Part shown: piece after piece, positions 1,222 through 64,000 of the stretch
Numbering within the stretch: the stretch's first letter is position 1
Layout: each line of letters begins with the position of its first letter
Assembly (NCBI GenBank): GCA_965222615.1
Contig: CBDCUI010000007.1
Coordinates: 736,001-800,000 of the forward strand
Source of the DNA: Gammaproteobacteria bacterium
Lineage (GTDB): Bacteria; Pseudomonadota; Gammaproteobacteria; UBA4575
Length of the DNA: 64,000 nucleotides
Reading direction: 5' to 3'
Made by a program: the position numbers and the translations under genes
Notes under the pieces: model-generated
Databases searched by the model: none
Told to the model about the DNA's origin: nothing
What the model saw: the letters and a program-made list of their open reading frames with translations, nothing else

Positions 1222-3684
1222 ATGCCCTTGTTTTTAAAGCTATTACGCCTAATATTCATCGGATTTTTCGGGATGTCCGTCGCAGCGGGGATCGTAGCTT
1301 TGGGTACCTATATCTACTTCGCACCTGGCCTACCCAGTGTAGCCACGCTCAAGGATGTAGAACTCCAGGTGCCACTTAGGGTGTACAGTCGTGATGCCAA
1401 GCTCATTGCGGTGTATGGAGAAAAACGCCGTCAGCCGCTCAAATATGGTGAATTTCCGCAGCAAGTGATCCAAGCGTTTCTGGCGGCTGAAGATGATCGG
1501 TTTTTTGAACATCCTGGGGTGGATTATCAAGGTCTGATTCGCGCCGCTATCGATGTTTTGCTTACTGGCGAGAAGCGTCAAGGTGGCAGTACCATTACTA
1601 TGCAGTTAGCGAGAAATTTCTTTTTAGGTAACGAACGAACCTATGTGCGTAAGTTGAGGGAAATATTATTAGCGCTTAGAGTTGAGCATGAGTTAACTAA
1701 AAACGAAATTTTAGAGCTCTACTTAAATAAAATCTACTTAGGTAATCGTGCCTATGGCGTTGGAGCGGCAGCGGATGTCTATTATGGCCTCGGCCTTGAC
1801 GAGCTCAATATTGCCCAAGTAGCGATGATTGCTGGTTTGCCTAAAGCTCCCTCACGCTACAATCCCATTATCAATCCAGACCGCGCTTTGTTACGTCGTA
1901 ACTACGTACTAGGCAGAATGCATGAGCTACGCTTTATTGATAATACGACGTATCAAGATGCAATCGACACGCCGGTTACGGCATCGCGACATTATCCACG
2001 CGTGGAGGCCAATGCCCCCTATATAGGCGAGATGGCAAGGGCCTATATTGTCGAAACCTATGGAAAAGATGCCTATAATAAAGGCTTCCATGTCTATACG
2101 ACCATTGACACAAAGCTACAAGAAACGGCAAAACGTGCACTTAAGAATGGTCTGCTTAATTATGATAAGCGACACGGTTTCCGTGGTCCGGAAACAAATA
2201 TTGGAGACATTTTCTCTGATTCAACAGAGCTAAATTTTGAACTAATAGATGAAGCTTTAACTGAACTGCACGAAATTGGTGGCCTCGTTCCGGCTATCGT
2301 GACTAAGGTTGAAGATACCAAGGTCGAATTTTATTTAGGTGGAGAGCGCTTAGGAAATTTATCGATAGACCAAGTTAAATGGGCCAAGCCCTATCTAAAT
2401 GAAAATGCGGTAGATAAAGAGCCACAAAGCTTTACTACAATATTTAAACCAGGAGATGTGATTCGAGTAGTAGAAAGCGACACGAATCAGTGGACTTTGA
2501 GTCAAGTTCCAGAAGTATCAGGTTCATTTGTTGCCATCGATCCACAAAACGGCAGTATTCTGGCTTTAGTAGGCGGCTTTGATTACAACCATAGTAAATT
2601 TAATCGTGCCATTCAGGCAAAACGTCAACCTGGTTCAAGCTTTAAACCTTTTATTTACTCGGCGGCATTAGAATCTGGCTATACGCCGGCAAGTATTATT
2701 AATGATGCGCCTGTCGTGTTTGAAGATGTGGCGCTGGAAGACACCTGGCGGCCGCAAAATTACAGTGGCAAGTTCTTTGGACCCACACGTTTACGAGATG
2801 CGCTCACCAAGTCACGCAATATGGTTTCAATTCGTTTATTAAAAGATATCGGTCGTCGACATGCCATGCAGCATGTCAATAAATTTGGTTTCGATCCAGA
2901 GCAACTTCCATATGACTTAACACTTGCGCTTGGTTCAGGTGCAGTGACGCCACTTGAGTTGGCAACGGGCTATGCGGTATTTGCCAATGGTGGTTACTAC
3001 ATTGAACCCTATATGATTGAGCGTATAGAAGATGCAAAAGGAAAGGTGTTATATCGATCTAGCCCGTTGATGGTATGTGAAGCAGATTGTCAGGCTCTAC
3101 AGAAACAAATGGAGTTAGAAGATAGTGAAATCTCCATCGATGATACGGAAGAAGATTCTGCGGTCACCGTTGCGATTCGTTCAGCAAAACGTGTGTTATC
3201 ACGAGAAAATGCCTATCAAATGGTAAGTATGATGCAAGATGTAATCCGGCGTGGTACGGGTTCCAAGGCCCGCGAAATTGGGCGCAATGATATCGCTGGT
3301 AAAACAGGTACTACCAATGATCAGCATGATGCATGGTTCAGTGGTTTCAATGGTGATTATGTCGCGACTGCTTGGGTGGGATTTGATCAGCTTAAGCCTC
3401 TTGGCAAAAGAGAAGTGGGTGGCGTCGCGGCTCTACCTATATGGATCGAATTTATGCGCTCGGCTTTGGAAGGTAAACCGGAGCATACGCTTGAACAGCC
3501 TGCGGGTATTGTTACTTTGCGAATCGATCCAGAGACTGGGCTTTTAGTCGATCAAGATAGCAATCAGGGCATTGAAGAGACTTTCCGTGAAGAGTATATG
3601 CCAACGTTGAGTGCAGAAATTGATAATCAATCCACCTATATAGAAAGTGGCGAAGAAATGGAAATTCCAGAGCAGCTATTTTAA
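1222..3684 (+). CDS. mrcA: Penicillin-binding protein 1A
   Basis: Transglycosylase motifs EDDRFFEH and GGSTITMQL; transpeptidase SSFK, SRN, KTG. Confidence 0.97.
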   Translation: MPLFLKLLRLIFIGFFGMSVAAGIVALGTYIYFAPGLPSVATLKDVELQVPLRVYSRDAKLIAVYGEKRRQPLKYGEFPQQVIQAFLAAEDDRFFEHPGVDYQGLIRAAIDVLLTGEKRQGGSTITMQLARNFFLGNERTYVRKLREILLALRVEHELTKNEILELYLNKIYLGNRAYGVGAAADVYYGLGLDELNIAQVAMIAGLPKAPSRYNPIINPDRALLRRNYVLGRMHELRFIDNTTYQDAIDTPVTASRHYPRVEANAPYIGEMARAYIVETYGKDAYNKGFHVYTTIDTKLQETAKRALKNGLLNYDKRHGFRGPETNIGDIFSDSTELNFELIDEALTELHEIGGLVPAIVTKVEDTKVEFYLGGERLGNLSIDQVKWAKPYLNENAVDKEPQSFTTIFKPGDVIRVVESDTNQWTLSQVPEVSGSFVAIDPQNGSILALVGGFDYNHSKFNRAIQAKRQPGSSFKPFIYSAALESGYTPASIINDAPVVFEDVALEDTWRPQNYSGKFFGPTRLRDALTKSRNMVSIRLLKDIGRRHAMQHVNKFGFDPEQLPYDLTLALGSGAVTPLELATGYAVFANGGYYIEPYMIERIEDAKGKVLYRSSPLMVCEADCQALQKQMELEDSEISIDDTEEDSAVTVAIRSAKRVLSRENAYQMVSMMQDVIRRGTGSKAREIGRNDIAGKTGTTNDQHDAWFSGFNGDYVATAWVGFDQLKPLGKREVGGVAALPIWIEFMRSALEGKPEHTLEQPAGIVTLRIDPETGLLVDQDSNQGIEETFREEYMPTLSAEIDNQSTYIESGEEMEIPEQLF

Positions 3685-4306
3685 AGCCGTGGAGCATAAA
3701 AAAAATGATCGATTAAGAAAAATGCTTGCGCATGAAGCTGCAAAGATCATTGCTACCGAGGGTGTATGTGATTTCCAACAAGCAAAACGTAAGGCCTGTG
3801 AACGTATAGGTAACTCTAATCGCGGATCTTTGCCCAGTAATAGCGAAATTGAACAGGCAGTATGTTCTTTTCAGCACACTTTTTTGCTTGATCATGATGC
3901 CATACTTGCACAACAACGCAAGACGGCACTTACTATTATGCGCTGGTTGCGAGAATATTCTCCCTATTTAGTAGGCCCAGTATTGGAAGGCACCGCTCAT
4001 GCCAACACCGCGATTACTATTCATGTTTCATCGGATGTGGTAGAAGAAGTAGTAGAAATAATTGAACGTAATGATATTGATTTAAAAATAGAAGAGCGAC
4101 GTCTGAAGTTTGGTAAAGAAACTGCCTATTTGCCAACTATAGTGTTTTTTTTCCAAGAAAATGAAATTGCAGTTACAATTTTTACCTTACGCCAACAACA
4201 TCAGGTTCCCAAAAGTAAAATTAAAAACCGTAGCTTGCAAAGGATGAATTTAAAAAACCTAGAAAATTTACTAGCAAAAGCCGAAACTAGTGATAGGCAG
4301 GACTGA
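3647..4306 (+). CDS. Conserved hypothetical protein (nucleotidyltransferase-like fold); true start probably slightly downstream
   Basis: EAAKIIA..AKRKA..LPSN.EIE and [12 protein letters not shown] motifs of a conserved proteobacterial family. Confidence 0.75.
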
Positions 4307-61369: not shown

Positions 61370-61813
61370 TTAATTCTCAGATAATTTATAGTCGGCAGCT
61401 GTGACTGCAAGTTCGTATCCAAGTGCTCCCATACCCGATATCACGCCAACGGCGATATCGGATAAAAACGAATGTTGGCGAAATTCTTCACGTGCAAACA
61501 CATTAGAAAGGTGTAGTTCAATGAATGGAATATCGACACCTAGCAGCGCATCACGTAAGGCAATACTAGTATGCGTAAAAGCACCTGGATTAAAAATAAT
61601 CATCTGCACACCATCTTGTTTGGCTTGATGAATGCGATTTACTAATTCATGTTCAGCATTGCTTTGGAAGTCTTCTAGTTGATGCCCCAATTGCGTCGCA
61701 GCCTGGTATGCACGCTGAATCACATCAGACAAGGATTCGTAGCCATAGACCTCGGGCTCACGCTGACCCAATAGGTTTAGATTTGGGCCATTTAATAGTA
61801 GAAGTTTGAGCAT
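61370..61813 (-). CDS. aroQ: Type II 3-dehydroquinate dehydratase
   Basis: [20 protein letters not shown]. Confidence 0.97.
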
Positions 61814-62036
61814 ATTTGTGGCTATTTCGCTGCGATTTGTTGTTAATTTGCAGGTTTATTAGATTATTTCTAAGTTTACATGAAATTTATGAGAGTGACA
61901 GTCTATTTTTATAAAATAGGCGATTTCTCAGAAATTCAAAGAAGTTAGTAGCAAGATAGCGAAATTTTAATAACACTCGACCAAATACTTGAATTGTCAT
62001 ACAAAAAATAATAACTATGTAACTCAATTAGTGCAG

Positions 62037-62063
62037 GAACTCACTGTTTTAAAAAAACTCTAA
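62037..62063 (+). promoter_or_regulatory. Putative sigmaE/ECF-type promoter of msrA
   Basis: GAACTC-N16-TCTAA, 42 nt upstream of the ATG. Confidence 0.5.
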
Positions 62064-62105
62064 AAAGAGCAAAGCCTCATTTAAATCTTTAAATATCAAT
62101 TACTT

Positions 62106-62780
62106 ATGCAATCCAAAATAATCGCCATCGTTACAACTGTGATTTGTATTGCCTTGTTAGCCAATTGGGCTTGGTCTGAGAAATCTGACGGAGAAGTCGA
62201 AGTCGACAGTCAGCATGCTAAGGCCATTTTTGCTGGGGGTTGTTTTTGGTGTATGGAACCACCATTCGACAAATTGGATGGGGTCTTGTCAACGGTATCA
62301 GGCTATACCGGGGGCCACACTGAAAATCCTACTTATAAACAGGTGTCATCTGATATTACGGGTCATTATGAAGTCGTCGAGGTTACCTACGACCCCAATA
62401 AAATTGATTATGCAACGTTGCTAAATGTTTTTTGGCATAACGTTGACCCATTAAATGATCGGGGGCAGTTTTGTGATAATGGAAATAGTTATCGCACAGC
62501 GATATTTTATTTAAATGATGAGCAAAAAAAACTCGCCGAAAATTCAAAACAAGAACTCATGGAATCAAACTATTTCAAAGATGAGATTGTAACGGTGATA
62601 GAAGCTGCAAAAACATTTTATCCAGCCGAGGATTATCATCAGAATTATTACCAAGTGAACCCTATTCGTTACAAATACTACCGTTTTGCATGTGGCCGTG
62701 ATAAACGCCTTAAAGAGTTATGGGGGGGATCTGCTGGAAAAGCTGGTCCATTGATACCATCTTTAGATCTCGCACACTAG
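62106..62780 (+). CDS. msrA: Peptide methionine sulfoxide reductase MsrA, probably exported; C-terminal tail derives from the repeat array
   Basis: N-terminal signal-like segment, GGCFWC, AEDYHQNY. Confidence 0.95.
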   Translation: MQSKIIAIVTTVICIALLANWAWSEKSDGEVEVDSQHAKAIFAGGCFWCMEPPFDKLDGVLSTVSGYTGGHTENPTYKQVSSDITGHYEVVEVTYDPNKIDYATLLNVFWHNVDPLNDRGQFCDNGNSYRTAIFYLNDEQKKLAENSKQELMESNYFKDEIVTVIEAAKTFYPAEDYHQNYYQVNPIRYKYYRFACGRDKRLKELWGGSAGKAGPLIPSLDLAH

Positions 62781-63112
62781 CCGCTGCAACTAAGGCTGGT
62801 CCGTTAATACCAACCACTGGTCTCGCACGTTAATCACTGCTGGAAAAGCTGGTCCATTAATACCATCTTTAGAACTCGCACACTAACCGCTGCAACCAAG
62901 GCGGGGCCATTAGTCCCAACAACAGGTCTTGCACGTTAATTGCTGCTACGAAAGCGGGACCACTTGTACCAACCATTGACCCGGCACATTAATCGCTGCA
63001 ACCAAGGCGGGGCTATTAGTCCCAACAACAGGTCTTGCACGTTAATTGCTGCTACGAAAGTAGGACCACTTGTACTAACCACCGACCACGCACACTAACC
63101 GCTGCAACCAGG
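62728..63112 (+). repeat. 53-bp tandem repeat array (7 full units plus a partial unit)
   Basis: Units end in TAG/TAA at 62780, 62833, 62886, 62939, 62992, 63045 and 63098. Confidence 0.95.
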
Positions 63113-63233
63113 GGGGTCGCCTGTGCCGCACTTAAGCCTAGTAAATTAATTGCCACAACTTATCGACAAACGTGTGAAATCGATCGCTATTCTTGCTAGA
63201 CATTTCCCATAAAATTAATTAATCTACCTACTA

Positions 63234-63286
63234 GCGCTGATTTGAGCATCAGCTTGCGGGCGCATTACAAGTACGGCTAAAGCGGG
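63234..63286 (+). promoter_or_regulatory. SAM-II riboswitch aptamer 1
   Basis: GCGC-TGATTTGA...TTGC..GCGC...GCTAAAG matches the SAM-II layout; upstream of metF. Confidence 0.85.
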
Positions 63287-63296
63287 AAGAAATTAT

Positions 63297-63333
63297 AAAA
63301 CCCACATAAGGCTGTGCCGATGTGGGTTTTTTT
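63297..63333 (+). terminator. Intrinsic terminator after aptamer 1
   Basis: AAAACCCACAT...ATGTGGGTTTTTTT. Confidence 0.85.
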
Positions 63334-63335
63334 AT

Positions 63336-63389
63336 GATCGCCGGTTTAATAAACAACTTGCAGGGCGATACAAAAATACTGCTAAAGCG
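63336..63389 (+). promoter_or_regulatory. Second SAM-II/SAM-V-like aptamer
   Basis: ATCGCC-GGTTTAA...CTTGCA.GGCGAT...GCTAAAGCG; same layout as aptamer 1 with a different P1 stem. Confidence 0.7.
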
Positions 63390-63633
63390 TTGCCGTTTTT
63401 GGGCCCAATAAACGTACCAACGTAATCATCCATTGGGCTGGGAGACGGTGTCATGTTAGAAATAATTGACCAAAACTTTCAAATCAAGACGACAAACTCT
63501 ACTTTGTCATTAGTATTTCTACACTTGTGCAGTATCTCTACTGTAAGAGCAGATTTTTCACTTTTGGTTAGTAGCAGATATTGCCATATTGATGACTTTC
63601 GCAATTTTGTTGCGCACATAGTGTATGGAGTAA

Positions 63634-64000
63634 ATGGACATGGAACAGTATAAACCTACAATAGAAAGTGGTAGTGCATTCAGTACTCAGGTTACATTTG
63701 AATTTTTTCCACCCCATACGCCAGCAATGGAGCAAACATTGTGGAAGTCGATCAAACATCTCGCAGTACTGCGACCACGATATGTTTCCGTTACCTATGG
63801 TGCCGACGGTTCAACTCGAAAGCGAACTCACAATATTGTCGCAAAGATACTCAGGGAAACTGAAATGACAGTAGCACCACATCTGACATGTATTGGTGCC
63901 AGTCGAGGTGAGATCGATGATATTGCACGAAACTATTGGGATCTTGGCGTACGTCATTTGGTTGCCTTGCGTGGAGATCCGCCCAAAGGTAAGGGCCGTT
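63634..64000 (+). CDS. metF: 5,10-methylenetetrahydrofolate reductase (3' end runs off the window)
   Basis: Not in the ORF track. Manual translation ...TFEFFPP...VSVTYGA.GSTR...APHLTCIG...VALRGDPP. Confidence 0.96.
   Translation, partial: MDMEQYKPTIESGSAFSTQVTFEFFPPHTPAMEQTLWKSIKHLAVLRPRYVSVTYGADGSTRKRTHNIVAKILRETEMTVAPHLTCIGASRGEIDDIARNYWDLGVRHLVALRGDPPKGKGR

Follow-up and report, generated by a model that had tools for sequence, protein, structure and literature searches.

A 53-nucleotide stop-spanning tandem array of msrA tail copies with a coding-like substitution pattern in an uncultured gammaproteobacterium

INTRODUCTION

Stop-spanning and other minisatellite-type repeats arise by replication slippage and unequal crossing-over. 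Silent-cassette systems, such as pilE/pilS of Neisseria and vlsE/vls of Borrelia, operate through gene conversion. A third group of loci is shaped by 3'-end replacement, or accretion at att sites, as described for e14 at icd, ICE and CIME elements at fda, and islands at tRNA genes.

This work presents an array of short repeats downstream of msrA in an uncultured, marine-type gammaproteobacterium with a genome of 3.1 Mb. All positions refer to the window, i.e., the whole stretch of 64,000 nucleotides (nt) of DNA that was analyzed. The locus resembles each of the systems named above in one respect. With stop-spanning repeats it shares constant-period, head-to-tail copies that include the stop codon and leave the protein untouched, and with pilE/pilS and vlsE/vls it shares an arrangement in which the expressed copy is followed, on the same strand, by partial copies that lack a start, as well as mosaic units. 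Its downstream 3'-end copies differ mainly by silent changes, as in att-site accretion, and an in-frame G7 tract stands directly before an alternative C-terminal option, as in homopolymer contingency loci. In the literature, covered at the level of abstracts, we found no description of a gene tail repeated in tandem, each copy with its own stop, with synonymous divergence among the copies.

RESULTS

Anatomy of the array

The features of the locus are as follows.

62106..62780, + strand: msrA, with an N-terminal hydrophobic helix, a PMSR domain (residues 39-190) and a conserved C-terminal extension
62722..62728, + strand: G7 tract, within Trp-Gly-Gly codons, ending where unit 0 begins
62728..62780, + strand: unit 0, type A (SAGKAGPLIPSLDLAH, stop), formed by the final 16 codons of msrA and its TAG; the sole translated unit
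62781..62833, + strand: unit 1, type B, core A-like (AATKAGPLIPTTGLAR, stop); mosaic when compared with units 2 (A2) and 3 (B3)
62834..62886, + strand: unit 2, type A (TAGKAGPLIPSLELAH, stop); 3 of 48 coding bases differ from unit 0
62887..62939, + strand: unit 3, type B (AATKAGPLVPTTGLAR, stop)
62940..62992, + strand: unit 4, type C (AATKAGPLVPTIDPAH, stop); first 11 residues shared with unit 3, although 8 bases differ
62993..63045, + strand: unit 5, type B (AATKAGLLVPTTGLAR, stop); one core-breaking Pro-to-Leu change
63046..63098, + strand: unit 6, type C (AATKVGPLVLTTDHAH, stop); two core-breaking changes
63099..63110, + strand: stub of an eighth unit, type B, first 12 nt, where the array breaks off
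63111..63116, + strand: G6 tract, at the distal edge of the array
63125..63160, + strand: candidate decayed older unit, identical to the start of unit 1 at 26 of 36 bases

Cut from position 62728 in 53-nt steps, the region 62728-63098 consists of seven 53-nt units arranged head to tail and then the opening 12 nt of another, the eighth. Every unit comprises 2 nt, 16 sense codons, and a stop codon, in a register inherited from msrA. Only unit 0 lies in the msrA reading frame; units 1 to 6 have no start codon, and each has its own stop. TRF reported a period of 53 with 7.0 copies, 66% matches, and 0% indels, and this result agrees with the register table, which returned peptides identical to those listed in a preliminary description of this DNA. 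The same description had proposed a higher-order period of 106 nt, which TRF recovered with 83 to 85% matches, and had placed homopolymer tracts at both array edges, where G7 (62722-62728) and G6 (63111-63116) are indeed present. Not a single indel occurs across the 371 nt of the array. The array is single copy in its own genome, where no other non-triplet tandem repeat is as large.

The units fall into three types: A (units 0 and 2), B (units 1, 3, and 5 and the stub), and C (units 4 and 6). The near identity previously assigned to alternate units held for units 0 and 2 and for units 3 and 5 (1 of 48 bases differs) and was less close for units 4 and 6 (8 of 48). Beyond the stub, the G6 tract may be what remains, after decay, of the Lys-Ala-Gly codons in the truncated eighth unit. 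The candidate older unit at 63125-63160 gave a local alignment score of 24, a marginal result that was reached by 6 of 500 shuffled sequences.

Logan contigs of run X1, which may be the source sample of the genome and is thus not independent of the organism, matched positions 62000-62938, 62925-63044, and 63031-63700 with 0 differences. Because these contigs match the whole stretch, the period of 53 nt does not stem from an assembly deletion; reads with 54-nt units had been named beforehand as a ground for refutation, and the contigs came out in favor of 53. The related suggestion of a decayed 54-nt coding repeat was not supported, as a stop codon stands in every unit at the point where orthologous MsrA proteins end and the contigs give 53 nt.

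Homology of the units to MsrA C-terminal tails

The product of msrA is 224 amino acids in length, as read from the open reading frame (ORF), and residues 39-190 match the PMSR domain (Pfam PF01625, E = 2.1e-63). At its N terminus, a hydrophobic helix (residues 2-22 in an AlphaFold2 model) is a candidate signal peptide or membrane anchor. At its C terminus, the protein carries a W..A..G.L(I/V)P-type tail. Of the 120 best-matching MsrA homologues, 81 have a tail of this type, and 18 of these 81 end right at the Pro. MsrA of the array genome forms a singleton cluster, its nearest homologue being 74% identical. The MsrA of a genome from the same genus (G001) ends in ...ATKPGELIPSQGLAN / ...ELWGELATKPGELIPSQGLAN and aligns with the array units, while the MsrA proteins of other relatives within the family end in ...SAGKDGSLFP or ...SAGKSGELLPTVEQN. 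In a few cases, the ends of homologues resemble types A and B (e.g., ...GPLIPTTGLRD and ...GPLVPSIGLAN). Homologues P0024 and P0016 have B-like tails.

In the AlphaFold2 model, for which the input alignment held 65 sequences, pLDDT was 95 for residues 201-210, 90 for residues 211-220, and 43 for residues 221-224. The model thus predicts order for the segment SAGKAGPLIP but not for the very C terminus. Among solved MsrA structures, none was found that spans the C-terminal extension. Since the tail is native to relatives and is predicted to be ordered, we read the units as copies of a conserved, functional piece of MsrA plus its stop codon. The view that the MsrA tail recurs downstream as a series of silent copies had already been put forward from the window alone, and the native tails of relatives now give it a footing in homology.

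Origin and distribution of the repeat

A genome-wide TRF analysis retrieved few tandem repeats, most of them with periods divisible by three. All 6 of the non-triplet tandem repeats with a period of at least 30 (periods of 50, 64, 43, 53/106, 49, and 32) include the 3' end, with the stop codon, of a gene. The second msrA paralogue of this genome, which is of the cytoplasmic type, has a stop-spanning repeat of its own, in which 50 nt covering the last codons and the stop are present in 2.1 copies. The five stop-spanning repeats other than the msrA array are young and have about two copies. A duplication of this kind is tolerated, and survives, because the protein is left unchanged. Within this class, the msrA array is most plausibly an old member that has expanded. 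Its anatomy and its sister cases in the genome point to a neutral stop-spanning duplication as its probable beginning, and the 106-nt period shows that it expanded by unequal crossing-over.

The array is known from one genome, with no second strain in the collections searched. When a 1,595-nt query containing the array was used, the array part had no match among the places listed for 40 other genomes. At 120 further distinct msrA loci, the 900 nt that follow the gene were free of the tail motif in every frame, and a nucleotide copy of the gene's own last 60 nt was found downstream at 0 of 34 msrA loci. A family-tail pattern retrieved 6 loci, all of which lack a downstream copy, and a pattern search for two cores spaced 53 nt apart returned 0 stretches in metagenome or viral contigs.

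In the same-genus genome G001, a probable single B-like relic lies ∼100 nt past the msrA stop and contains two 1-nt indels in 48 nt. Its nhmmer E value is 0.18 over 585 kb, which scales to roughly 5e-5 when the search is restricted to the few hundred bases in which one would look for a copy. Between the array genome and G001, msrA itself shows a pS of 0.68 and a pN of 0.20. If the relics in G001 and in the distal flank of the array are real, the duplication would predate the split of the two species.

A survey of 100 msrA ORFs yielded two further cases of displaced tails, one copy each, in unrelated phyla. At the first (L065), a 45-nt copy of the msrA tail lies 98 nt downstream and is 100% identical; at the second (L046), the copy lies 203 nt downstream and is 91% identical. 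In both, the spacer is unrelated. Displaced tails with unrelated spacers speak for site-specific accretion, in which elements integrating at the msrA 3' end would each bring in a replacement tail, shift the previous one downstream, and later lose their cargo. Accretion would also explain tails that have diverged under selection in different hosts. We nonetheless consider it very improbable as an account of the array, whose units abut at an exact 53-nt period with neither cargo nor spacer. The genes around the array (dusB-like, prmA, accC, accB, aroQ, metF, metH, MCP, dsbD, fxsA, and groEL) likewise speak against it: the 10 neighboring proteins that were scanned are all housekeeping proteins and include no integrase, transposase, reverse transcriptase, or recombinase. 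The array has no matches in phages, plasmids, or viral contigs, and the GC3 of the units (0.12 to 0.38, versus 0.31 to 0.38 in the genes of the genome) gives no indication of foreign composition. On the same grounds, i.e., housekeeping neighbors, the lack of phage, plasmid, or viral matches, and native GC3, an origin from a mobile element was rejected.

Substitution pattern and evidence for selection

Fitch parsimony on the unit tree assigned 8, 10, and 25 steps to codon positions 1, 2, and 3, respectively, over the 16 codons. The 2-nt linker, the fastest-changing part of the unit, took 5 steps in its 2 columns, and the stop codon took 1. The coding changes divide into ∼23.3 synonymous and 19.7 nonsynonymous changes, with ∼14 and 34 sites, respectively. 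In the MsrA register, pN/pS is 0.35; it is 0.39 in the antisense register that shares the wobble positions and 0.88 to 1.67 in the other four. The excess of third-position, largely synonymous variation that had been reported for the MsrA register is therefore confirmed by both the step counts and pN/pS. The accompanying caveat, that a stop-free minus-strand register leaves the selected strand unproven, holds insofar as the two registers have nearly the same ratio; it does not extend to the question of descent, as the plus strand is identified as the source by the homology of MsrA tails in other organisms.

Silent units were also compared with each other. Units 3 and 4 (B3 and C4), neither of which is expressed, differ at 15 of 48 bases, with 10 synonymous and 5 nonsynonymous differences (sd and nd); their first 11 codons contain 8 base differences and 0 amino acid differences. 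In neutral simulations, the observed values were reached in 0 of 1,500 runs at each of 6 distances. At an omega of 0.5, the simulations gave a maximum of 0.004 for B3-C4 and 0.0013 for B1-B3, statistics that draw on 43 changes in 48 columns and on pairs that were picked post hoc and share branches. The comparison of B1 with B3 probably re-counts A-B differences brought in by conversion, because unit 1 resembles a B unit with an A-type core. An omega of 0.5 is the floor to be expected if silent copies decay freely and a single expressed lineage is constrained, since the silent branches are no shorter in time than the expressed interval from one copying event to the next.

These simulations disfavor neutral decay, and because the silent pair B3-C4 shows the same pattern, the signal does not come from the expressed unit alone. 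Statistically, the spare units show the divergence of coding sequence, and the peptide that they encode is kept, most of all in its structured segment (A/S)A(T/G)KAGPL(I/V)P. Between unit types, pS ranges from 0.5 to 0.84, so that synonymous divergence is near saturation. Synonymous and nonsynonymous changes number 6.5 and 8.5 on terminal branches and 17 and 11 on internal branches, respectively, and the two sets are not clearly different. Replacements that break the KAGPL(I/V)P core occur only in units 5 and 6, the most distal ones, and units 0 to 4 keep the core; past units 5 and 6, the array is truncated and decayed, which completes a gradient. As for indels, the array has 0 in 371 nt, in contrast to the two in 48 nt of the G001 relic. 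The fast-changing linker and the absence of indels fit modules selected as "tail plus stop."

An inert by-product is the main alternative for this pattern. Here, a neutral stop-spanning repeat would have evolved without exchange with the expressed tail, and its codon-like pattern would reflect inherited history or the small sample; diverged imported alleles might, for example, have repeatedly replaced the expressed tail and left the older tails behind. Such a history is in keeping with the five young two-copy repeats of like kind in the genome, with the presence of the array in no other organism examined, with the decay of both the second copy in G001 and the distal end of the array, and with the nature of the recent changes in units 5 and 6, which are core replacements. 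In addition, by our own arithmetic, the overall omega of ∼0.34 is indistinguishable from 0.5 on pooled counts. However, the silent-silent comparisons disfavor an omega of 0.5 as well as an omega of 1, B3 and C4 encode identical peptides over 11 codons in spite of their 8 differences, and 371 nt have passed without an indel. Native GC3 does not mark the units as imported, and we know of no mechanism that would stack imported alleles in register. On balance, we regard an inert repeat as unlikely.

RNA structure and recoding

No terminator-like site was found between the msrA stop and position 63292, and the array is therefore probably part of the msrA 3' UTR. No RNA data set was listed among those that contain the sequence. 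This location, along with an antisense register of equally low pN/pS, could be taken to mean that the units act as RNA or DNA, be it as a structured 3' UTR, as a sponge or protein-binding array, or through an antisense product. The remaining evidence leaves this reading with very little weight. When the region 62700-63160 was folded, neither strand did better than shuffled sequences (z scores of +0.96 and +2.06), and a search of Rfam at E values up to 10 gave 0 matches in 62722-63116 and 8 weak matches in 61800-64000. A structured RNA element was rejected on the basis of these fold scores and the lack of an Rfam match within the array. Moreover, the strict 3-nt period of the variation and the exchange of Leu codons TTA and CTT are marks of codons, and minus-strand ORFs are all 52 amino acids or shorter.

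Translation of the units in place, whether by frameshift, bypass, or reinitiation, would produce either a repeat extension of MsrA or free peptides. It would account directly for peptide-level constraint on seemingly silent units, and a frame of 37 codons, starting from an out-of-frame ATG at 62720, terminates with the unit 1 tail. We nevertheless find this reading scarcely credible. As the preliminary description had observed, no unit begins with a start codon, ATG, GTG, and TTG all being absent in register. Inspection of the unit sequences revealed no slippery heptamer, and the last sense codons of units 0 to 6 are CAC, CGT, CAC, CGT, CAT, CGT, and CAC, so that the codons preceding the stops differ. 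Bypass with matched codons was excluded because these last sense codons differ between neighboring units, and a programmed frameshift was rejected for want of a visible slippery heptamer and because the linker is the least constrained part of the unit. The recoding-dependent repeat peptide proposed earlier is accordingly not supported: starts are absent, take-off and landing codons are not matched, and the linker changes fastest.

Possible exchange between units and the G7 tract

Unit 1 is a mosaic: its two ends are of the B kind, and four informative sites in a row within the core match type A. By our own count, the chance of such a four-site run is ∼0.02. The mosaic suggests that neighboring units may exchange short patches. 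Types A, B, and C share identical runs of only ∼8 nt. In Logan contigs of 3 runs, which hide rare and copy-number variants, no joints within the array and no G-tract variants were seen, and the G7 tract itself is crossed by contigs of runs X1 and X3 with 0 differences, rare variants being dropped from such contigs. A DGR was rejected, as no reverse transcriptase is encoded among the 10 neighbors scanned and the differences between units involve all four bases rather than adenine specifically.

The G7 tract is a rare feature, with only 26 runs of at least 7 G or C in the 3.1-Mb genome, and relatives have shorter G runs at this position. An additional G there would lead into the +1 frame, which stays open across unit 0 and terminates with the unit 1 tail, within a stop-to-stop ORF at 62714-62833. 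A +1 slip in G7 would therefore give MsrA the tail of unit 1, exactly as had been predicted. Of the six spare units, slippage can reach only this one.

Taken together, one expression site, start-less silent copies, and an adjoining, rare G7 tract that leads into the unit 1 tail might point to a dedicated tail-variation system, i.e., a maintained reservoir from which the MsrA C terminus is beneficially switched by recombination or G7 slippage. Several old tail types under peptide-level constraint are also what balancing selection would give, and type A- and B-like tails are in use in other species. On the other hand, neither the G7 tract nor the array varies in the data at hand (contigs only), and slippage does not extend past unit 1. 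The protein, a putative periplasmic or membrane-anchored repair enzyme, is not an obvious target of diversifying selection and has a dN/dS below 1. A recombinase is missing from the vicinity, as is any special cis element identified near the array, and 0 of 120 other msrA loci share the arrangement. Furthermore, 18 of 81 homologues do without any residues beyond the conserved Pro. A dedicated system thus appears improbable. A working reservoir in the form of a minimal cassette arrangement free of recombinases, in which individually functional MsrA tails would be kept under purifying selection and brought into use by repeat recombination in register, with G7 slippage as a second route to unit 1, is in our judgment improbable as well. 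If a reservoir of this sort were real, the population would contain MsrA isoforms bearing different tails.

DISCUSSION

The explanation that we tentatively prefer, at somewhat less than even confidence, is a tandem amplification across the stop codon, from which spare tails would now and again recombine into the expressed slot and there be filtered by selection. The process would have begun with a tandem duplication of the last 53 bp, comprising 16 codons, the stop codon, and 2 bases after it. Amplification would have been specific to this lineage, with unequal crossing-over multiplying an already duplicated segment and so generating the 106-bp higher-order period, while short-patch conversion would have mixed neighboring units. 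On rare occasions, recombination or conversion in register would place spare tails, or patches of them, in the expressed slot. Exposure in this slot would subject the spare tails to purifying selection, and in a very large population a rare test could suffice. Neither a dedicated recombinase nor a recoding signal would be involved.

Several observations count against this selected amplification. With shared runs of ∼8 nt, RecA-type recombination between types should be very rare. The deep divergence between types (pS of 0.5 to 0.84) sits badly with a turnover that exposes every unit; it is awkward for every model of fast turnover and constitutes the unexplained core of the finding. The nearly equal ratio of the antisense register (0.39) and the similarity of terminal and internal branches also weigh against it, as does the fact that no exchange between units was seen, in one genome only. 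With respect to the preliminary description as a whole, the silent tail copies and the synonymous bias have been retained, while the recoding-dependent peptide and the decayed 54-nt repeat have not.

Stop-spanning duplications are free of cost and would be expected to be short-lived junk. The msrA array, on the contrary, is old, multicopy, and free of indels, and its untranslated copies preserve the peptide. If rare recombination does keep silent copies under selection, the array would offer a model for how systems resembling pilS or vls could originate from a trivial duplication. If the copies are instead translated or switched, they would represent a new way to vary the C terminus of a protein. 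For genome annotation, the locus is a caution that coding-like conservation need not mean translation. The phenomenon may be general.

Comparison with known systems

Each of the described systems departs from the msrA locus in its own way. Att-site accretion involves elements, integrases, and spacers, none of which accompany the msrA array, and the array keeps an exact period of 53 bp. In comparison to pilE/pilS and vlsE/vls, the msrA cassettes are only 53 bp in length, each has its own stop codon, and no switching has been observed; neither a dedicated cis element nor a recombination factor was found at msrA. Furthermore, where those systems are under diversifying selection on an exposed antigen, MsrA is under purifying selection, with a pN/pS of 0.35. 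Relative to homopolymer contingency loci, the G7 tract is near the short end of useful slippage lengths and gives access to 1 of 6 spare units. Stop-spanning repeats of the minisatellite type differ from the array in degree and in age: rather than about two copies, the msrA array has seven, with a pS of up to 0.84 between copies that keep the encoded peptide, 0 indels, and a higher-order period.

Alternative frames through the array

An out-of-frame ATG at 62720, made by the conserved Leu-Trp codons of msrA, opens a 37-codon frame (window 62720-62833) that runs through unit 0, the translated end of msrA, and closes with the tail and stop of unit 1. The sole Shine-Dalgarno-like bases lie 2 nt ahead of this ATG, a spacing that is too short, and the frame is probably a product of chance. 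Further along, a 52-codon frame (window 62940-63098) begins at a TTG immediately 3' of the unit 3 stop and ends with the unit 6 tail; this frame would be accessible only on translation of unit 3.

Candidate riboswitch upstream of metF and metH

Two elements precede the methionine genes:

63224-63301: aptamer-like part, upstream of metF (63634-) and metH, matching Rfam SAM_alpha
63292-63335: terminator-like hairpin with a T run, after the aptamer-like part and before metF and metH

The region 63224-63335 is a candidate SAM-II-type riboswitch, with the SAM_alpha (RF00521) match scoring 28.2 bits (E 8.7e-4), under the Rfam gathering score of 36. Approximately 160 to 230 nt of the region are repeated at 80% identity at two sites on contig C9 of the same genome (161625-161853 and 1112366-1112528), the latter upstream of an ORF resembling a Cys/Met-metabolism PLP enzyme, and the region recurs in relatives as well.

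Stop-region duplications elsewhere in the genome

The genome carrying the window (G000) also contains these features, the last four being non-triplet tandem duplications of ∼2 copies each:

C7:10412-11056, minus strand: second msrA paralogue, cytoplasmic-type, ending ...GGTGVQLT*; outside the window
C7:10324-10428: tandem repeat spanning the stop of this paralogue (50 nt, 2.1 copies, 92% matches)
C7:208255-208376: period 64, containing a gene 3' end
C7:262116-262201: period 43, containing a gene 3' end
C8:685944-686058: period 49, containing a gene 3' end
C9:216996-217066: period 32, containing a gene 3' end

Each of the two msrA genes in this genome has its own stop-spanning tandem repeat, possibly by coincidence. 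In the period-64 duplication, the stop falls within the second copy, so the protein tail is changed.

Second msrA tails in other genomes

A same-genus genome (G001, locus L006, minus strand) retains a probable decayed, type B-like second tail copy ∼100 nt past the msrA stop (nhmmer E 0.18 in 585 kb). This copy spells ATQAGPL... and then loses register through two 1-nt indels. More distant organisms carry repeats of the msrA end as follows:

L065, 3472-3516 and 3614-3658, Burkholderiales MAG: ∼45 nt, 100% identical, 98 nt downstream
L046, about 3555-3600 and 3821-3865, Nitrospirales MAG: ∼45 nt, 91%, 203 nt downstream

Unrelated DNA separates the two copies at both loci. These are scars of displaced tails, different in kind from the array in the window.
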